In this document: one piece after another, positions 6,575 through 61,958 of the stretch
Position numbering within the stretch: the stretch's first letter is position 1
How the letters are laid out: each line of letters begins with the position of its first letter
DNA from: an uncultured Candidatus Saccharibacteria bacterium
GTDB taxonomy: Bacteria; Patescibacteriota; UBA1384; UBA12157; JAENIV01
Assembly: GCA_964433905.1 (NCBI GenBank)
Contig: CAYSSM010000001.1
Location: forward strand, 60,246 to 124,245
Reading direction: 5' to 3'
DNA length: 64,000 bases
Program-made: the position numbers and the translations under genes
The notes under the pieces: model-generated
What the model was told of the DNA's origin: nothing
Database searches by the model: none
Seen by the model: only the letters and a program-made list of their open reading frames with translations

Positions 6575-6646
6575 GGGCCTGTAGCTTAGAGGAAAAGCGT
6601 TAGTATGGCATACTAAAGATCGCGAGTTCGAGTCTCGCCAGGTCCA
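6575..6646 (+). tRNA. tRNA-Ala (anticodon GGC).
   Basis: Cloverleaf folded by hand. The acceptor stem GGGCCTG/CAGGTCC carries the G3:U70 Ala identity pair. D stem GCTT/AAGC. Anticodon stem TTAGT/ACTAA with loop ATGGCAT (U33, GGC, A37). T arm GCGAG-TTCGAGT-CTCGC. Discriminator A73. No CCA is encoded. Confidence 0.85.
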
Positions 6647-37976: not shown

Positions 37977-38933
37977 TCAGGATTTTTTACTCAGTTCTAA
38001 ATATGTCAAAGTCAGCGCGCTTGAATAAAAGGCGTTGTAGGCACCGGCAAACACCATAAAGCCGATTAATACTGCCAAACCGGCAATAATTGCATAAATA
38101 ATCGCCATAATTTTCGAGGCTAAAAGTAAACCAAACCCAATGGCTAATAAAAGTCCGCCAATAAATAATACAGCTAAAATAACGGCGATCCCCACTCCAA
38201 TACTAATGGCGTAAAGAAGTAAATACATCACAATTACTTTGCCTAAATTATCGCGAACCATATGGAGAGAATGGCGGATGCTTTCCCAAACACTTAATTT
38301 TTCCAATACCACCACTCTTAACGAATATGGTGAGATAAATGATACCAGTAACCAAAAAATCAAATCAACAAAAAAGAGCAATATTCCCCAGATAATAGCC
38401 AAAATATACTGATGAGAGACAACCAATAAAGCCACCGGGCCGATAAGTAATATCAGCGATGCCAGAATCATCAAAAAATAAAGAATGTTTACTCCCAAAA
38501 TGCGCCAGAAATTATGCCAACCAAGCAAAAAACCGATTTTGAAATTATTTTTCTCGTTTATGGATATTTTTTTAACCGAACCGATCAAGGCGCCTTGGCT
38601 AACAATACCAATGATATACATCACCAATCCAAATACCGTCAAAATGGCAATCAAGGTTAATATTATCGCTCCGTAACTCAGCCAAAAAGAAGCAAAATCA
38701 AAATTGGTAGAATTATTTTCAAAAGCTTTTTGCCATTCAGAGCTACCACTAGAGTAATTTAAACCAAAACTGCGGTAACCGCCATAACCGCCAGCTAGCA
38801 TTCCAAAAATCCACAAATACTTTTGTTTTAAAGCAATTTTGTAAGAATTTCTTACTATTTCAAAATAATCCATCAATCCTCCTTTGAGTGATACTTTTAT
38901 TGAATTATAACATAATTGCTTGACAAGAGGCAA
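37977..38933 (-). CDS. Hypothetical polytopic membrane protein inserted between fusA and tuf.
   Basis: About 7 predicted TM helices. The start is uncertain; MDYFEIV at aa 21 is an alternative. Confidence 0.5.
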   Translation of the reverse strand: MPLVKQLCYNSIKVSLKGGLMDYFEIVRNSYKIALKQKYLWIFGMLAGGYGGYRSFGLNYSSGSSEWQKAFENNSTNFDFASFWLSYGAIILTLIAILTVFGLVMYIIGIVSQGALIGSVKKISINEKNNFKIGFLLGWHNFWRILGVNILYFLMILASLILLIGPVALLVVSHQYILAIIWGILLFFVDLIFWLLVSFISPYSLRVVVLEKLSVWESIRHSLHMVRDNLGKVIVMYLLLYAISIGVGIAVILAVLFIGGLLLAIGFGLLLASKIMAIIYAIIAGLAVLIGFMVFAGAYNAFYSSALTLTYLELSKKS

Positions 38934-39249
38934 TTAATCTGTTACAATTGCTTGTTTTGTAAATTTATAGGTTTTTTTTGATGGATATAATTTTACTTTT
39001 AATTTTAATTTTCTATGTCAGCGTATTAGTGAGCTTCGTCATTTCAATCGCAGCTTTTTCGCTTTCTACAAAAATAAAAGCCAATTTTTGGATTTTAGGT
39101 CTAATTTTGGGTATTTTTATCTTAAATTGGATAAAATTGGCTTTGTAATATAGTTAGAAACTTGAAACATCATTTCTATATAAAAATCTATTGACTTTTT
39201 AACTATTATAAGATTGCTTTGCTCGCACTCGCAATGACATTTATCATTT

Positions 39250-52268: not shown

Positions 52269-52304
52269 AAAAAAAATGCGCCCGGGACAAAATGTCCCGG
52301 GCGC
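52269..52304 (-). terminator. Strong GC-rich rho-independent terminator: GCGCCCGGGAC-loop-GTCCCGGGCGC (11 bp) followed by an 8-U run.
   Basis: Plus strand: AAAAAAAATGCGCCCGGGACAAAATGTCCCGGGCGC. It lies 28 nt after the stop of the SdrD-like gene. Confidence 0.8.
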
Positions 52305-52331
52305 TTAAAGTTCGTCACCGTCTTGCGGTCA

Positions 52332-54110
52332 CTACGGGTAAATGACCGTTCCCGGATCAGGCAAGATGAACGGAACAGCGTCGTTATTGTTGAGTAAGTC
52401 GAGCTGACCCGCCATCGCCGTTCGTTGGGAATCGCTCCCACTCTGCCAGACCTGAATTGCCTGGGTAACCAACGTCTGCGTTGACACCCAAGAACCATTC
52501 AACCAGATCGCAGCTCCTACACCACCCAGCCGATGCCGACAGTTCATAATGAAAGCATCGAGCTGTTGAGCCAGTTGTTCACGCGGATCGCCGCCGGCGT
52601 TGGAATCAACAAGGAAATGGCTTTGCTCGGCCAAGGCCGAACCGGCAGGAGCGATGGTCTCTCCCCAGTCGCCGTTGGCAGCAGCAACGGGGGTTCCGTT
52701 AGCAAAAAAACCGTCAATCGGCTCGTCGCCGGCGCCAAAGTAACTGGACGGCGCTTGCCACGGAGCCAGACTGTTAAGGTATGCAATGTCAGACGGAGTA
52801 GTTTCACCCAACCCGTTCTTGTTATGCCAATACCCCTTGGTATCAAAATCAGCCTGGCCTTGGCGAATGTTGCCGAACTCCACTCGAGCCGAATCACCTG
52901 AAGCCAGTTGAATCTGCCTTGTCATGGGAGTAGTGTTCACCCACCCACCAGAAAGAGGCATCCGTTCGGTGATATCGTACAAACCCGGCATGATCCAGAA
53001 GGTGTCACAACCGTTAGACTTGGTTATGGAAACGCTGTCCCATACCCACCCTGCCACGGTTGTGCCATGCTCGTAGATCCACCAGCCGGGAATACCAGGC
53101 TCGCCTGCGTCCCAGATACCGTCGCCATCGAGGTCGTAGAACTTACAGACCGTTAGACGGGCCAACTGGATGTTGCCGAAGATAACTTCATGAGTTTCCC
53201 GGGAAGTCCCGGCAACCAAGAAATAGGCCGCAGGATAGTCGCGGATGCGGACGCCGTCGAGGTAGGTGCAGGTGTACATCCACCCTTCGCGCTGTTCCTC
53301 AACGAAGTTCCAAAATCCAGCCGGTTCAGTGGTGATCTGGATGGGCGTATAGTAAGTGTTGGTAACACCGAGGGGATCGATTGCATCAACCCGCCAACCA
53401 GTGATTTCCAACTCGCCTGCATCCCAGATACCGTTACCGTTAGCATCGTTGAACTTCTTAACAGTCACGACCGGCGGCGTATATGGAGGACCATTACGAC
53501 GCACCTTAAAGTTGTCGGTCTTGCTGTCCGGTGGCCTGAAACCGTGATAATTCCCCGGGCTGTAGCCGTTGTCAACGAGGTTGGGATCGCCGATGAAGTT
53601 TTCGCACGGAGTTATCCATACCTTGTAGACACCACCCTTATTGGGTGTGTCAAGGTAGGGCATCAACTGAACAGTGATCGCGCCCAGTTCAGGGTGATCG
53701 ATATCGATGCCCGTCTTGTGAGTGCAGTCGACTTCCACCCAGACACCCCTGACCTTCGTCAGCTTGGTGCACGGGTAGACATAGTCGATGACCCCAAGAG
53801 CACTGACGTGGACCTTGCGGCACTTAACCGCGTCTGTCGAGAGAAGAACCTTCCCTGACGGGTCAGTGACCTGAAAGTAGTAATCGCCCTCGTTAAGCCC
53901 CGCCGCGCCCGCAGGCGCGTTGGACCCAGGCCCGCCATCGAGATAGACATCCTCTTTGGCCGCGAAGATGTTAGCGTTGACTCGCGAACCGTCAGCCGTG
54001 GTCGTAAAAATCGCCCCCGGCATCGGCCCGGCCAAAGCCTGAGTGCTGGCCAGTGCCAACACCCCCAAAGTAGCCAGCACAACCATAATCAGCACAACCC
54101 TTCGTCCCAT
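52332..54110 (-). CDS. Secreted protein with two SdrD-B-like (Cna-B type, Ca-binding) repeat domains; GC-rich, probably of foreign origin.
   Basis: Signal peptide MGRRVVLIMVVLATLGVLALASTQALAGP. FNDANGNGIWDAGELEITGW and FYDLDGDGIWDAGEPGIPGW match the D.NGNG..D.GE.G..G motif. Codon usage is strikingly G/C-rich versus the flanking genes. Confidence 0.75.
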   Translation of the reverse strand: MGRRVVLIMVVLATLGVLALASTQALAGPMPGAIFTTTADGSRVNANIFAAKEDVYLDGGPGSNAPAGAAGLNEGDYYFQVTDPSGKVLLSTDAVKCRKVHVSALGVIDYVYPCTKLTKVRGVWVEVDCTHKTGIDIDHPELGAITVQLMPYLDTPNKGGVYKVWITPCENFIGDPNLVDNGYSPGNYHGFRPPDSKTDNFKVRRNGPPYTPPVVTVKKFNDANGNGIWDAGELEITGWRVDAIDPLGVTNTYYTPIQITTEPAGFWNFVEEQREGWMYTCTYLDGVRIRDYPAAYFLVAGTSRETHEVIFGNIQLARLTVCKFYDLDGDGIWDAGEPGIPGWWIYEHGTTVAGWVWDSVSITKSNGCDTFWIMPGLYDITERMPLSGGWVNTTPMTRQIQLASGDSARVEFGNIRQGQADFDTKGYWHNKNGLGETTPSDIAYLNSLAPWQAPSSYFGAGDEPIDGFFANGTPVAAANGDWGETIAPAGSALAEQSHFLVDSNAGGDPREQLAQQLDAFIMNCRHRLGGVGAAIWLNGSWVSTQTLVTQAIQVWQSGSDSQRTAMAGQLDLLNNNDAVPFILPDPGTVIYP

Positions 54111-54222
54111 ACCTTAGCCTCCCCAGTATTTGCCCTTGCGGGCTAGTAGTCGAACTCCGTCTTTAAAAAGCCAGAGCCGCCTGCAGACCCGCAAGGTATT
54201 TTTCAAAGATCAAATTAGAACT

Positions 54223-54251
54223 AATATAGCACATTTAACCATAAAAGTCAA
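54223..54251 (-). promoter_or_regulatory. Near-consensus sigma70 promoter TTGACT-N17-TATATT for the SdrD-like gene, followed by a ~105-nt GC-rich structured 5'UTR.
   Basis: Minus-strand sense: TTGACTTTTATGGTTAAATGTGCTATATT. The UTR has the inverted repeat TTGCGGG...CCCGCAA and the SD GGGGAGGCTAAGGT-ATG. Confidence 0.55.
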
Positions 54252-56370: not shown

Positions 56371-56430
56371 AAACTACTCTGCGGCTTGCCGCAGAGTATC
56401 CTGCGGAAAGTTTGTTTCCAAACAGGTTGA
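56371..56430 (+). repeat. Hairpin repeat family, copy B (short; lacks the second hairpin).
   Basis: AAACTACTCTGCGGCTTGCCGCAGAGTATCCTGCGGAAAGTTTGTTTCCAAACAGGTTG lies directly downstream of the infB stop. Confidence 0.65.
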
Positions 56431-56440
56431 AAATAAAAAC

Positions 56441-58369
56441 TTATTCCCCCAATTTTCGAGTTCGTTCTTCTTTTTTATAACATTCCAATGAGTCCCCCAC
56501 TAAAATTTTGGTTGGAGATTCTACTTTAAGACCGCATTCAAAACCCTCCGCCACTTCGGAAGTGTCTTTTTTATTTTGTTGTAAAGAGGTAATCTCGCCC
56601 ATACCAATAGTATCTTTATCACGAACAATCCTGACTTGGCAATGATCTTCTAATTTTCCTTTTGTTACCCTTCCACCAATAATTTTTTCATTTTTAGATG
56701 TCTTAAAAACAGCTAAGATTGATAGCCGACCGATTTCAGTTTCAATGATTTCCGGCTCAAGTAATCCTGATAGAGCGGCGGTTAAATCATCCAATAATTG
56801 GTAAATAATATCGTAGATAGAAATTTTAATATTTTCGCGGCGAGCCAAATTCATAACATCGGTTGACGCTTTAACGCGAAAGCCAATCACCAAAGCATGG
56901 GAGGCAACCGCCATATTGATATCTGACTCGGAAATATCTCCAACTCCCTCGTGAATAATTTTTATTTTAACTTCTTTATCTTCCAAATTCTTAAGTGAAC
57001 TCTTAATCGCTTCAAGCGAGCCGGCAACATCAGACTTAAGGACAATTTTGAGTTCTTTTATTTTTCCCGCTTTGATATCTTGCGAAAGTTCGGTGATGGA
57101 AATAACTCTGCGTTTAATTGTTTTTGTTTTAGTTAATTCTTTGGCAGTCTTTTCATTTTCAACAACCAAGAATCTGTTGCCAAAATCCGGTAGGTCCTGC
57201 AAACCGGCGATTCTAACCGGAACCGAAGGAGCAGCTTCTTTTATTTTCTTGCCCAAATAATTTTCCATAATCCTAACTTTGCCATAAGTATCACCGATAA
57301 CAATAGGGTCACCGATTTTTAGAGTTCCCTCTTGAACTAAAACCGTAGCAATGGGACCCATACCAGATTGCATATGCGACTCAATCACCACGCCAGTTGC
57401 AGAAAGCGTTGGATCAGCTTTAAGCTCTTTAAGGTCGGCAACCAGTAAAATCATTTCCAACAAACTATCGATATTTTTTGTTTCCTTGGCTGAAACATTG
57501 ATCATAGGCACATCACCGCCCCACTGCTCCGACAAAAGACCGTTGTCGGCTAATTGTCTCTTGGTTTTATCAATATCGGCATCGGGCAAGTCAACTTTAT
57601 TAATAGCCACGACAATTGGCACACCCGCTTCCTTGGCATGGTTTATAGCCTCAATCGTTTGCGGTTTTACGCCATCGTTTGCCGCTACCACCAAAACAAC
57701 CACATCGGTAATATTAGCCCCGTGAGCTCGCATGGCCGAAAAGGCCTCGTGTCCGGGAGTGTCCAAAAAAGTGATTTTGCGTGATTTAGACGCAAAATCA
57801 TCCTGAGTTTTACGAAGGATCTCTCGATTAGATTTGCTTCCTTGAGATGATGTTTCGTCTTTTGGACGAATTGTGACTTGATAAGCGCCGATATGCTGAG
57901 TGATGCCGCCTGCTTCGGTGGCAATAACATCCGTGTGGCGGATGGCGTCAAGCAATTTGGTTTTACCATGGTCAACATGGCCCATAACCGTAACTACCGG
58001 AGATCGCAGTTTTAGATTCTTTTTAACTTGTTTTAGAGATGCAACTATTTTCTCTTCTTCCTTCAACTTTACCTCAACGGCAAACTCATCAGCAATAATA
58101 GCCATTGTGTCAAAATCAATGAGTTCATTAATCGTCGCCATGACACCGTTTTTGACAAGTTTGGAAATTATTTCCGTAACGGACAAATTCAAAATATCCG
58201 CAAATTCCCGCACCGTTAAAACAGGCGAAATTAAAACAATTCTTTTTTCGGTTTTTTCTTTTTCGACTTTTGCCTCTTTAACCGCTTTGTTTTCTTCCAC
58301 TTGCGTTAAGCGCTTGCCTTCGGCTTTAGCTTCTTTTTTGCTTAATTTTCTTTGCTTTCTTTTTGCCAT
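56441..58369 (-). CDS. infB: Translation initiation factor IF-2.
   Basis: G domain [20 protein letters not shown]; 642 aa. Confidence 0.95.
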   Translation of the reverse strand: MAKRKQRKLSKKEAKAEGKRLTQVEENKAVKEAKVEKEKTEKRIVLISPVLTVREFADILNLSVTEIISKLVKNGVMATINELIDFDTMAIIADEFAVEVKLKEEEKIVASLKQVKKNLKLRSPVVTVMGHVDHGKTKLLDAIRHTDVIATEAGGITQHIGAYQVTIRPKDETSSQGSKSNREILRKTQDDFASKSRKITFLDTPGHEAFSAMRAHGANITDVVVLVVAANDGVKPQTIEAINHAKEAGVPIVVAINKVDLPDADIDKTKRQLADNGLLSEQWGGDVPMINVSAKETKNIDSLLEMILLVADLKELKADPTLSATGVVIESHMQSGMGPIATVLVQEGTLKIGDPIVIGDTYGKVRIMENYLGKKIKEAAPSVPVRIAGLQDLPDFGNRFLVVENEKTAKELTKTKTIKRRVISITELSQDIKAGKIKELKIVLKSDVAGSLEAIKSSLKNLEDKEVKIKIIHEGVGDISESDINMAVASHALVIGFRVKASTDVMNLARRENIKISIYDIIYQLLDDLTAALSGLLEPEIIETEIGRLSILAVFKTSKNEKIIGGRVTKGKLEDHCQVRIVRDKDTIGMGEITSLQQNKKDTSEVAEGFECGLKVESPTKILVGDSLECYKKEERTRKLGE

Positions 58370-58415
58370 TGTAAATTGATTTTATCACTTTCAGGAGTAA
58401 AAGGCAAGGTTAAGC

Positions 58416-58444
58416 TTGACTTTTGAGTAATTTTATGGTATAAT
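58416..58444 (+). promoter_or_regulatory. Consensus sigma70 promoter TTGACT-N17-TATAAT.
   Basis: TTGACTTTTGAGTAATTTTATGGTATAAT lies about 50 nt upstream of the TTG-start ORF, with the SD AAAGGAGA. Confidence 0.65.
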
Positions 58445-58494
58445 GCGAATTAGAATGCTGTGGAATATGCCAATCTCACCGAAAGGAGACCAAG

Positions 58495-58773
58495 TTGGCA
58501 CAACCAGAAATCGTTGATCACCTCGTACGAAAACACTGCCTAAGCATGAAACAGAACGTCCAGTTGCTCCTGTTGATCATTGAGGCTGCGGCAGCAACCA
58601 GCACCATCCCAGTTACAGAGTATGATGAAGAACCGGATAGTTACTACACGCCAAGTGGCGCAAGTCGTTCCGACTTTGAGATGAGACTGAAGAAGAGCAT
58701 GGAAACCGTCGACCGCCCGGTCATCCTCGCCTTCAAGGAATATCTGGAGGCCCAGACCGCCGCCCTAAAGTAG
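58495..58773 (+). CDS. Small GC-rich hypothetical protein (92 aa, TTG start).
   Basis: Good SD (GAAAGGAGACCAAG-TTG), GC-rich codons in an AT-rich genome, and a hairpin terminator 24 nt downstream. Confidence 0.5.
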   Translation: MAQPEIVDHLVRKHCLSMKQNVQLLLLIIEAAAATSTIPVTEYDEEPDSYYTPSGASRSDFEMRLKKSMETVDRPVILAFKEYLEAQTAALK

Positions 58774-58796
58774 GGCTACAAGAACACACCACACAA

Positions 58797-58821
58797 GAGG
58801 CTCTGCGGATCGCAGAGCCTC
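58797..58821 (+). terminator. Hairpin GAGGCTCTGCG-GAT-CGCAGAGCCTC (11-bp perfect stem) followed by a T-rich tract.
   Basis: Seen in sequence. It lies in the 66-nt gap between the small ORF stop and the convergent gyrA stop. Confidence 0.6.
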
Positions 58822-58839
58822 TTCCTATATATACTGTTT

Positions 58840-61761
58840 TTATAGCTTTCCACCCCAATAATTGGCTTCGGATGGTTTTTCTTTTTCTTCAAAAAGATTG
58901 GTTTGAGTATCTTTATTAATTTTTTTTGGCGATTTTAATTTAGCTGATTTTAGCGCTGTACCATCATGAACAGCCGCCCATTCGGGAAGACCGCCTTCTT
59001 TTGTATCAGCTTTTTGATTATCTTTTTCTTCTTCTTTTTTAGGTTTCGAAACTGCTGGCTCTTCTTCTTCTTCTTCTGCTGCTACTGCTACCTCTTCGGT
59101 TTCCTCTGCTGTTGCTTGTGATATTTTAAGTTCTTCTTCCGCTTCAACTACATCAATTTGCTGTTCAGGCAATTCTTTGTCAATTTCAATTAATTTATTG
59201 GTTTTATCTTTGCTAATTATCGTAACCGAAGTAACTTTATCACCCTGATTGAATCGAATTAAAGTTACTCCTTGAGTGTCGCGCTGTAATTTTTTGACTG
59301 TCGCAAGCGCCATTCTGATAACTTGGCCTTTGCGCGACGCCAAAATCAAATCGTAGTTATCATCGGAAACCAGCCTCATGCCAACAATCGGTCCGGTTCT
59401 TTCGGTTACATTAGCCGCCCGCAAACCCATGCCGCCACGAAGTTGCATATTAAACATCGTTAAAGGCGTTCTCTTACCAAATCCTTTTTCCAAAACAATC
59501 AGGGCATCAACCTTACTTTCGGCTCCGGCAGGAATAACATCGGTTGAGACAACATAATCATCACCCTTGAGCAAAATCCCCCGCACTCCGGCAGCGGTTC
59601 TGCCCATCGGACGAATGTCGGTTTCTTTGTAAAAAATAGATTGGCCTTTGGCAGAAACCTGAAAAACATTCTCATCACCGGTGGTTACTTTTACCCAACG
59701 AAGGCGATCTTCCGGACGAAGTTTAATGGCCAAAATTCCGGTTTTTCTAACCTTGCTGTATAGCTTCATGCTCGTTTTTTTAACAAGGCCTTTGCTTGTT
59801 GCCAATAAAATATATTTATATTTTTCGATATCACTCGATGACAGCGTAATCATGGCCGTTACTTTTTCTTCGGGCGAAATTTGTAGAATATTAACGATCG
59901 CCTGGCCTTTGGCAATCCGCGAAGCCGTAGGTATTTCATAGACCTTAGTATGGAAGATTCTACCACGATCGGTAAAGAAATAGACATCATCATGAGTATT
60001 AGACACCAGCAAATGTTCAATCATGTCTTCTTCTTTAGTTTCCATCCCAATCACGCCCTTGCCGCCTCGAATCTGGCTGCGGTAAGACGATACCGGCATC
60101 CTTTTTATATAGTTGCCGCGAGTAAATATGATAATCACTTGTTCTGACGGAATTAAATCCTCGGCGCTAAATCTGCCCAGTTCTTGCGGGTGGATTTTGG
60201 TCTTTCTGGGAGTAGCGTATTTTTCTTGAAGTTCTTTAAGCTCTTTTTTAATGATACTTAGAATCTTTTCTTCTGATGCCAAGACAGCTTCCAGCTCAGC
60301 GATTAATTTTAATTTTTCTTTGTATTCCGTTTCTACTTTTTCCCGTTCCAAGGCGGCAAGAGCGGCAAGGCGCATTTCCAAGATAGCATTTGCTTGAATA
60401 TCAGTCAGTTTAAATTTAATTTTTAGCTGCTTAAAAGCCACTTCGCGATTGGCCGATTTTCTAATTGTCGCCACCACTTCATCGATGTTTTTTAAAGCAA
60501 TCCGCAAGCCCTCTAAAATATGAGCACGTTCTTTGGCTTTCTTTAGTTCGAAAGCAGTGCGACGGCGGACAACTGCTTTACGATGCTTAATATATTCTTC
60601 TAAAATATTTTTGAGCGTTAACACTCGCGGCTGAAGGCCGTCGATTAGCGCCAGCATATTGGTATAAAAAGTCGTCTGCATCAATGTCAGTTCATAAAGA
60701 CGATTTAATATTTTTTTCGGATAAGCGTTGGCCTTAAGTTCAATGACGATTCTGACACCGTCTTTTCGATCTGACTCGTCTCGAAGATCGGAAATTCCTT
60801 CCAATTTCTTTTCTTTAACTAAATCGGCAATTTTGGTAATCAATTCGGCTTTATTGACCTGATACGGTATCTCGGAAACAATAATCCTAAAACCGCGTTT
60901 ATTTTCTTCAATATTGGCCACCGCCCGCATTATAATCGCTCCCTTGCCTGTAGCATAAGCGGCCTTTATTTGTTCCACCCCAAAAATTTCCGCTCCGGTT
61001 GGAAAATCGGGTCCTTGAATATATTGCATCATATCTTCGATAGTACAGTCGGGATTTTCAATTAAATGAATAACCGCGTCGCAAATTTCACCTAAATTAT
61101 GAGGCGGAATATTGGTTGCCATGCCTACGGCAATACCCATCGAACCGTTAATTAACAAATTAGGAAGCTTGGCCGGCATCACTTTTGGTTCTTGCCTGGA
61201 AGCATCATAGTTGGCCACAAAATCAACCGTTTCCTTGTCAATATCAGCGAGCATTTCGCTAGCGGCGGAAGTCAAACGACATTCGGTATAACGCATGGCG
61301 GCGGCGGCATCGCCATCCATTGAACCAAAGTTACCTTGACCGTCAACAAGCGGAAGTCTCATGGAAAAGCTTTGCGCCAATCTTACTAAAGTATCATAAA
61401 CAGCAATATCGCCATGCGGATGATATTTCCCCAAAACATCACCAACAACGGTGGCTGACTTGCGATATTTTGCTTGAGGAGTTAGCCCCAATTCCGACAT
61501 TGAAAATAATACGCGGCGATGAACCGGTTTTAGGCCATCGCGAACATCAGGCAAAGCACGGGCGATGATGACCGACATGGCGTAGGCTAAATACGACTCT
61601 TGCATTTCGTTTTCTAATATTCTCGGCCGCATTATGCCAAACTCGGTTTTCACATCCTTCGTTTTATCATCCTCAAAATTACCGATCGTTTCCGACTCGG
61701 CCACTTTTTCAGGATTAAGTTTTTCTAAATCTTCTTTACTTTCTTTGTCGCTTGCTGCCAT
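58840..61761 (-). CDS. gyrA: DNA gyrase subunit A with a ~100-aa acidic/Lys-rich C-terminal tail.
   Basis: Active-site region and ..AAMRYTE..; 973 aa. The C-terminus carries an EEEEEE stretch. Confidence 0.95.
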
Positions 61762-61958
61762 TATTTTCCTTCATGACTATGTTTTTTGAACTCCCCTTTG
61801 GCTTTTTTTACATTCGATGGCACCGCCCTTGGTTTGCCCCGTTGCTTGCCCATTCCTACCTCAATTTCGTACCAATTTTTATGAGATTTTTCCGTTTCCA
61901 AAAATGAGTTTGGTTTTACAATTTTTCCTTTAACTTTAACTTGTTTGGAATTTTTCAT
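61761..61958 (-). CDS. Small basic protein (65 aa) between gyrB and gyrA.
   Basis: SD AAGGAAAAAATG. Its stop overlaps the gyrA start. Lys-rich. Confidence 0.4.

Follow-up and report, generated by a model that had tools for sequence, protein, structure and literature searches.

The window, by which we mean the whole 64,000-nucleotide stretch of DNA analyzed here, carries infB (56441-58369) and gyrA (58840-61761) on the minus strand, and the gap of 470-471 bp between them contains a compact unit on the plus strand that we refer to as the ORF92 unit, after its 92-codon reading frame. The genome is that of Berkelbacteria bacterium GW2011_GWA1_39_10, a member of the CPR known from Rifle groundwater, whose IF-2 protein and the one encoded in the window are 100% identical. 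ORF92 with the same flanks was found in several samples, and since at least 12 independently assembled contigs carry it, we consider the locus to be real and neither a chimera nor an assembly artifact. The protein is already present in GenBank as "hypothetical protein" (KKQ90995.1 and KKQ74061.1; UniRef100_A0A0G0LSN7).

A sequence-only reading of this region had described a self-contained expression unit between infB and gyrA, and all the elements that it described were found in the sequence (Table 1). The promoter TTGACT-N17-TATAAT is present and additionally has an extended -10 TG, the Shine-Dalgarno core is followed after 6 nt by the TTG start, and the 92-aa translation was reproduced exactly. 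Some of the measurements had to be corrected. The ribosome site had been placed about 45 nt after the -10 element, whereas AAAGGAGA, at 58482-58489, begins 37 nt past it, and the stem of the hairpin, perfect as claimed, comprises 13 bp instead of 11.

Table 1. Features of the ORF92 unit in the window and gene content upstream of infB in related loci
Feature	Position	Strand	Details
Native infB promoter	58379-58407	-	From promoter scan: TTGCCT, 17-nt spacer, TAAAAT, with TG
Whole inserted unit, about 425 bp	58410-58835 (approximate)	+	Between gyrA stop codon and infB promoter -35
Sigma-70-type promoter, predicted	58416-58444	+	-35 TTGACT 58416-58421, spacer 17 nt, -10 TATAAT 58439-58444; TG at 58436-58437 precedes the -10 (extended -10); 11/12 match
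5' leader hairpin, predicted	58468-58500	+	Base-pairs the UUG start (58495-58497) and 58486-58489 of the ribosome site
Shine-Dalgarno core AGGAG	58484-58488	+	From sequence reading; 6 nt before TTG start
ORF92, 92 aa	58495-58773	+	TTG start, TAG stop (58771-58773); from ORF listing and database identity
Hairpin, perfect 13-bp stem, 3-nt loop	58795-58823		Arms 58795-58807 and 58811-58823
L095, upstream of infB			gyrA stop 49 bp before infB start
L092, upstream of infB			gyrA, NUDIX gene, 59-aa GC-rich ORF; latter two on opposite strand
L097, upstream of infB			GC-rich ORFs of 100 and 108 aa (GC 0.58), then NUDIX
L098, upstream of infB			RHH-PIN toxin-antitoxin pair
L096, upstream of infB			PD-(D/E)XK gene
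L094 and L102, upstream of infB			purL-like genes
L093, upstream of infB			Two unrelated small ORFs

The ORF92 promoter is one of just five sites in the 64-kb window, both strands counted, that match the promoter consensus at 11 of 12 positions. Judging from its spacing, transcription would start near 58451-58453. This promoter and that of infB stand back to back, with 8 bp between their -35 hexamers. A block of the infB promoter (CCTTGCYTTTTACTCCTKAAAGTG) was also found upstream of infB in the related locus L095 (89% over 28 nt by blastn) and, in a more divergent version, in the related locus L092. Regarding translation, the TTG at 58495 is the earliest possible start after an in-frame TAA at 58444. 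Since 11 of the 24 long ORFs in the window are preceded by Shine-Dalgarno-like cores, the AGGAG in front of it is meaningful in this organism. The predicted leader hairpin has a folding energy of -9.7 kcal/mol (z = -2.36), and 5 of 200 shuffled sequences folded equally well. This signal is modest, and the hairpin might have a regulatory role. The sequence ACCGAAAGG, common to two leaders, was taken as a chance occurrence, its distances from the -10 element being different.

The sequence-only reading had called the coding part GC-rich, unlike the promoter, and the computed values agree with this: ORF92 has a GC content of 0.522 versus 0.382 for the window, and the promoter part (58410-58469) is at 0.30 while positions 58470-58835 are at about 0.51. 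Only 2.5% of the 250-nt intervals reach the GC content of ORF92, and these lie mostly in a first GC-rich islet at 52.3-54.2 kb. Within the frame, GC by codon position is 0.576/0.370/0.620, a significant three-base periodicity (chi-square, p = 0.0014), and this pattern, in which GC drops at position 2 and peaks at position 3, is typical of a gene from a GC-richer genome. Codon usage points to the same frame, which scored -20 against -53 and -66 for the other forward frames with the gene table of the host, and -6 against -53 and -56 with the table of the first-islet gene. Additionally, the plus strand is A-rich across ORF92 (AT skew +0.24 to +0.32), like the sense strands of the neighboring genes. 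The length of the frame by itself is weak evidence, because an ORF of at least 92 codons arose in 8% of dinucleotide shuffles of the insert when six frames were counted and in 2% when only the forward strand was. It is convincing only when three-base periodicity and ribosome site are added to it.

The possibility of a protein-coding-looking small RNA, also raised from the sequence alone, fared less well. With the terminator left aside, the 344-nt body of the transcript is no more stably folded than its dinucleotide shuffles on either strand (z = -0.12 on the plus strand and -1.61 on the minus strand), so that a structured noncoding RNA was rejected. The relatives examined contain no homologous sequence. 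A known RNA family was rejected as well: at the gathering score, Rfam gave only a tRNA at 6575 in the whole window, and no tmRNA was found in the window with ARAGORN. When the 481-nt region was searched at an E value of up to 10, Rfam returned a sub-threshold cyano_het_sRNA match on the hairpin (23.3 bits, cut-off 35.7) and two noise matches. Together with the periodicity in the ORF frame, these results favor protein coding over a structural RNA. ORF92 is not a missed RNase P, tmRNA or 6S RNA, nor a new RNA class, but an orphan gene that GenBank already lists as a hypothetical protein.

The hairpin starts 21 nt past the ORF92 stop and 16 nt past the convergent gyrA stop. Its folding is strong on both strands, with -23.4 kcal/mol (z = -6.9) on the plus strand and -24.0 kcal/mol (z = -5.6) on the minus strand. 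No T-run follows it on either strand, and because of this it was missed by the terminator scan. From its position and stability, it is probably a bidirectional terminator. The core CTCTGCG..CGCAGAG occurs in two hairpins of the window, here (58801-58817) and in the infB terminator (56377-56396), and was absent from the relatives examined. We also considered a palindrome of a Y1 transposase and rejected it, since the palindrome that flanks the nearby Y1 transposase (L003 18862-19548) is not this one.

To place the unit in its lineage, we compared the window with eight related Berkelbacteria infB loci (L092 to L098 and L102), the closest found, whose IF-2 proteins are 73-80% identical to that of the window. 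They were gathered by IF-2 protein search and exact-protein look-ups. In the IF-2 contig scan, the universal MGHVDHGK motif drew unrelated phyla at about 45% identity. Conservation of the ORF in relatives had been proposed as a check, and ORF92 was found in none of the eight loci; indeed, the unit was absent from all of them at both the nucleotide and the protein level. The most informative relative is L095, which has the same gene order as the window (gyrB, small ORF, gyrA, infB, M23 peptidase, Obg) and in which the gyrA stop and the infB -35 hexamer are a mere 11 nt apart. In this locus, gyrA transcription would run straight into infB. The insert boundaries were set by eye in an alignment of the window with L095. 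Since the infB promoter block is also found in L095 and, divergent, in L092, the insertion could be placed between the gyrA stop and the infB -35, at approximately 58410-58835.

Relatives carry differing cargo upstream of infB (Table 1), which indicates a variable slot with ORF92 as one of its cargoes. Horizontal transfer is known to concentrate in hot spots, and the space upstream of infB is, as far as gene content tells, a fast-turnover slot in this lineage. The L092 and L097 loci illustrate this turnover. They are homologous from infB to a few bases past a divergent TTGACA, which lies 17 nt from the infB -35, and again in the NUDIX gene; the interiors between these shared flanks (957 and 833 nt) are GC-rich and mutually unrelated. 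The two GC-rich ORFs of L097 have their own promoter each (TTGACA-N16-TATAAT or TACAAT) and a hairpin between them. A 25-nt promoter stretch is common to L092 and L097 only, and the window unit has neither nucleotide nor translated similarity to either of them, so that a common origin of the GC-rich units was rejected. We found no terminal inverted repeats or target-site duplication at the insert and no recombinase or integrase gene among the genes within 10 kb. A 21-nt direct repeat (58372/58830) was rejected as a duplication, since it matches at 16 of 21 positions, is AT-rich and does not lie at the insertion boundaries.

The suggestion of a small acquired gene, the best supported of the three made from the sequence alone, is in good agreement with these data, namely the absence from eight of eight relatives, the gap of only 49 bp in L095 and the deviant GC content with its high GC3. 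A highly expressed regulatory protein was the third suggestion; as to this, a near-consensus promoter only predicts expression. Most likely, the ORF92 DNA is foreign and came from a GC-richer donor. One could go further and regard the space upstream of infB as a dedicated capture slot, in which small, GC-rich, self-expressed mini-genes, each made up of a promoter, an orphan ORF and a hairpin, are swapped without a recognizable recombinase. We give little credence to this idea, which draws on three genomes, and no more to its corollary that an unrecognized cassette-like system has three unrelated cargoes in ORF92, the 59-aa ORF of L092 and the two ORFs of L097 (100 and 108 aa). If the slot were of this kind, its cargoes might supply exported factors for an episymbiotic lifestyle.

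That the protein resembles no known family, as had been noted from the sequence alone, holds across family, protein, PDB, phage, plasmid and metagenome searches. A word-indexed search of 5.8 billion protein clusters returned a single cluster, 98% identical and from the same species. A full phmmer scan of 1.84 billion representatives gave this same cluster and P0122, a 325-aa tandem-repeat translation whose match we judged spurious. Pfam, NCBIfam, PHROGs and PADLOC gave zero families for ORF92 at permissive E-value limits of 1 to 10, all matches of a PDB sequence search had E values of at least 0.7, tblastn against phage and plasmid collections gave no match, and a scan of JGI metagenome contigs recovered the same ORF92 locus only. 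In all of these searches, the copies of ORF92 were 98-100% identical and came from one species. By sequence comparison, ORF92 is a true orphan restricted to this species.

The protein has a mass of 10.4 kDa, a pI of 5.1, a GRAVY of -0.2 and a net charge of -4. A single-sequence AlphaFold2 model, of low confidence (pLDDT 62), contains three helices (residues 4-35, 58-70 and 74-91), the first two being separated by an acidic linker (residues 36-57) that is disordered. The predicted long N-terminal helix has a hydrophobic LLLLIIEAAAA core, and the C-terminal helices would form a helical hairpin. Foldseek found 0 matches to this model in the PDB. Read from Met18, the protein resembles a signal peptide (MKQNVQLLLLIIEAAAA/TS), but that ATG has no ribosome site. 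The Kyte-Doolittle mean of residues 22-40 is 1.76, whereas their sum on an approximate Hessa scale comes to about +5 kcal/mol. Because the two hydropathy scales disagree, the idea of export is weak, and our guess from these crude scales is only that ORF92 may be exported or membrane associated. As to function, our best guess is an accessory, non-enzymatic small protein that would act by binding a partner. Tryptic peptides expected from the sequence are SMETVDRPVILAFK, EYLEAQTAALK and QNVQLLLLIIEAAAATSTIPVTEYDEEPDSYYTPSGASR.

We then looked at variation within the species. Eleven additional loci are 99.4-100% identical to the window in the intergenic region and 98-99.9% in the wider flanks, and the unit itself is identical in 9 of the 11 contigs compared at the DNA level. 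A dN/dS comparison had been proposed for the frame. The protein frame is intact, and there are only two polymorphisms in it, at 58709 (V72A) and 58757 (T88I), both at second codon positions and non-synonymous, with none synonymous. These two changes are compatible with relaxed constraint about as well as with function, and two events prove nothing.

Taken together, we consider it fairly likely that the unit, some 425 bp of foreign DNA with a higher GC content than the host, carries an expressed orphan protein gene limited to this species and lies in a variable slot immediately upstream of the infB promoter. The sequence data themselves show its anatomy, the coding signal, the orphan status, the absence from relatives and the variability of the slot, while its transcription, translation, termination, foreign origin and function are inferred. 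RNA polymerase would start at the near-consensus extended -10 promoter, near 58451, and produce a transcript whose 44-nt leader could draw the UUG start and some of the ribosome site into a hairpin. Translation from the UUG at 58495 would give a 10.4-kDa, mildly acidic, presumably helical protein, and the 13-bp hairpin would end the ORF92 transcript and, from the opposite side, the convergent gyrA transcript.

Other explanations have to be weighed against this one. An unlikely one, which nevertheless deserves attention, is that the unit is a decaying or neutral passenger, that is, recently acquired foreign DNA with an intact and perhaps transcribed ORF that is under no purifying selection, having lost its use to the host or never had one. 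Such a passenger would fit with both polymorphisms being non-synonymous second-position changes and none synonymous, with the lack of any homologue in the databases searched, with the quick turnover of the slot among relatives and with the absence of ORF92 from all related loci examined, which makes it dispensable for the lineage. However, none of the four elements (promoter, ribosome site, ORF, hairpin) is disrupted, 9 of the 11 compared contigs, which come from several samples, carry the identical sequence, CPR genomes are small and usually lose useless DNA, and two substitutions are far too few for an estimate of dN/dS.

If the roughly 375-nt transcript itself were the product, as a small RNA or by acting on the gyrA or infB messages, the ORF would be incidental or secondary. 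The predicted strong promoter and strong hairpin of its own, the location in a GC-rich islet of an AT-rich genome, as with many RNA genes, the lack of relatives of ORF92, a leader hairpin somewhat above chance (z = -2.36) and a 3' end that abuts that of gyrA all speak for such an RNA, regulatory or of dual function. We nonetheless find it improbable, given that no Rfam family other than the terminator-like match was found at E values of up to 10 and no tmRNA, that the body without its terminator folds as its shuffles do (z = -0.12 and -1.61 on the plus and minus strands), that codon periodicity is significant in the ORF frame, and that no related locus has nucleotide similarity or a conserved structure. 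About as improbable is a cis-acting insulator, in which the DNA or RNA signals would matter, with the hairpin stopping gyrA transcription and the divergent promoter altering supercoiling or polymerase occupancy at infB. The symmetrical hairpin 16 nt past the gyrA stop, the two -35 hexamers back to back at 8 bp, the divergent TTGACA found 17 nt from the infB -35 in L092 and L097 as well, and the same palindrome core in the infB terminator speak for such an insulator. However, it leaves unexplained why an open frame of 276 nt would show codon periodicity and be preceded by a ribosome site, and L095 does without any such module.

The first GC-rich islet of the window (52332-54110) matches the ORF92 unit in architecture and composition, without any sequence relation. 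It encodes a 592-aa adhesin/pilin-like protein (GC by codon position 0.57/0.47/0.64), and both a separate promoter (TTGACT-17-TATATT, with TG) and a perfect GC hairpin belong to it. L095 lacks the islet at that place. More than 900 homologues of the protein, 50-64% identical, are spread over bacterial and archaeal phyla, among them CPR bacteria, other bacterial phyla and Asgard archaea, and its model is a confident one of Ig-like/CnaB type. No ORF92-like neighbor was seen beside these homologues. The first islet is probably the more interesting lead.

Among known systems, integron cassettes likewise combine a small orphan ORF, foreign in composition, with a palindrome behind it, and the relatives likewise have different small ORFs in the slot, two of them in tandem in L097. 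The ORF92 unit differs in having its own promoter and a perfect short palindrome without a GTTRRRY core or extrahelical bases. An integron gene cassette was rejected on account of the missing attC features, the promoter and the lack of an integrase within 10 kb. REP/RAYT repeats combine many palindrome copies in a genome with a Y1 transposase; in the 64-kb window, two hairpins share a core. A type II toxin-antitoxin pair was rejected as well, since there is a single ORF, the other frames of at least 30 aa being short and overlapping ORF92, and no family match.

Similarly, dual-function small RNAs such as SgrS and RNAIII and the mRNAs of type I toxins are stand-alone transcripts of a few hundred nucleotides, as predicted here, with a leader that can pair the ribosome site and the start codon and an occurrence limited to one species. 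The ORF92 unit differs from them in that it has no overall excess of structure and that no antisense partner was identified. Furthermore, type I toxins are hydrophobic and 20-60 aa long, whereas ORF92 has 92 aa and is mostly hydrophilic (GRAVY -0.2). Small phage-type accessory proteins, such as anti-CRISPR proteins and anti-restriction DNA mimics, are closer in that they too have fewer than 100 aa, are acidic, helical or disordered, belong to no family and are driven by a strong promoter. However, ORF92 has no PHROGs, PADLOC or phage-genome match, and its net charge is only -4. Neither an HTH (aca-like) neighbor nor prophage genes were found within 10 kb of it.

The closest parallel is offered by lineage-restricted ORFans, whose origins, by transfer, divergence or de novo birth, are debated (review PMC12315717). 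Like them, ORF92 is short, lacks a homologue outside one species, has an atypical composition and lies between core genes, gyrA and infB, in a slot that has different cargo in relatives. According to earlier studies cited in PMC12315717, ORFans are lower in GC, whereas ORF92 is GC-richer than its host. The unit cleanly illustrates how the tiny genome of a CPR bacterium takes up small foreign genes with expression signals of their own, in a slot of fast turnover flanked by essential genes. If it is indeed expressed, ORF92 would lend itself well to following what becomes of orphan genes in reduced genomes, with only 425 bp, a clear ancestral state in a relative and polymorphisms among strains. 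For an ORFan, the unit is also uncommonly neat, a near-consensus promoter of its own and a perfect hairpin being packed into 425 bp.

For the protein encoded by the first of the two GC-rich islets in the window, annotated as hypothetical, we found more than 900 homologues, aligned along its entire length with 50-64% identity and originating from Planctomycetota, Myxococcales, Longimicrobiales, Anaerosomatales and Asgard archaea (Heimdall-, Hod- and Promethearchaeota), and in every case the gene was solitary, with unrelated genomic contexts. Its AlphaFold2 model (pLDDT 86.8) combines Ig-like/CnaB-type beta domains with a helix at the N terminus and a helical domain at the C terminus, and the closest PDB matches to this model were SdrD, Bacillus anthracis TIE and Gram-positive pilins. 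An identity this high between domains of life suggests that a surface protein has been transferred recently and promiscuously.

Coordinates of the features analyzed in the window and in related or adjoining loci
Feature	Sequence	Position	Strand	Description
First GC-rich islet	window	52278-54251	-	self-contained unit: promoter, ORF, hairpin
Islet promoter	window	54251-54223	-	TTGACT-17-TATATT with TG
Islet ORF	window	52332-54110	-	592 aa; GC 0.56; KKQ90991.1, "hypothetical"
Islet hairpin	window	52304-52278	-	perfect, 12 bp, GC, plus T-run
Near-consensus promoter	window	within 38920-39148	+	TTGACA-17-TACAAT with TG; 11/12
56-aa ORF	window	38978-39148	+	highly hydrophobic; preceded by the 11/12 promoter; between two minus-strand genes
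65-aa ORF	window	61761-61958	-	lysine-rich; between gyrB and gyrA
L092 insert	L092	4966-5922	opposite to infB	upstream of infB
L097 insert	L097	132-964	opposite to infB	upstream of infB
L092 element	L092	5375-5505		~130 nt; ~500 bp upstream of L092 infB
Y1 transposase gene with flanks	L003	18840-19602		PF01797; 228 aa; ~3.4-4.1 kb past the right end of the window

GC-rich DNA was also found at the infB loci of two related Berkelbacteria, L092 and L097. The two loci match each other in the flanking infB and NUDIX sequences and in having a divergent TTGACA, but the DNA between these common flanks, GC-rich in each, is mutually unrelated. The L092 insert harbors a 59-aa ORF (GC1/2/3 of 0.63/0.39/0.68) with a GC hairpin, while the L097 insert carries ORFs of 100 and 108 aa, each with its own consensus promoter; none of these ORFs had a match in Pfam, NCBIfam or PADLOC. 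Within the window, another near-consensus promoter lies ahead of the hydrophobic 56-aa ORF, which probably encodes a small membrane protein.

Next to the gyrase genes, the lysine-rich ORF is kept at the same position in L092 and in L095, a further related infB locus, with 70-74% identity and a 22-residue core marking its conservation. It has no Pfam family and may represent a conserved, gyrase-linked small basic protein of Berkelbacteria. In gyrA itself, the C-terminal acidic tail shows a strain polymorphism (window 59078-59082), a 12-nt indel within a CTT/GAA-type repeat leading to a GyrA of 973 or 977 aa, both variants being seen among contigs that are elsewhere more than 99.5% identical. 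The gyrB gene of L092 (L092 1-810) contains an intein (PF14890), its product being 1022 aa long.

The terminator hairpin of infB (56377-56396) and the hairpin (58801-58817) between gyrA and ORF92, the 92-aa orphan ORF, share the core CTCTGCG..CGCAGAG, with two matches seen versus none expected in shuffles. This core was not found 3' of infB in seven relatives. Its presence in both hairpins could be coincidental, could stem from a native terminator that was duplicated, or could mark a REP-like palindrome of low copy number.

Two features are reminiscent of mobile elements. The L092 element is bounded by a perfect 15-nt inverted repeat (AGGGGACGGTTCTCT / AGAGAACCGTCCCCT) and looks MITE-like. In L003, a locus reaching past the right end of the window, one palindrome, TTGATACACCTC-n-GAAGTGTATCAA, which was not found in the window, lies on either side of the Y1 transposase gene, and this transposase with its flanking palindromes resembles the arrangement of IS200/IS605 or RAYT elements.
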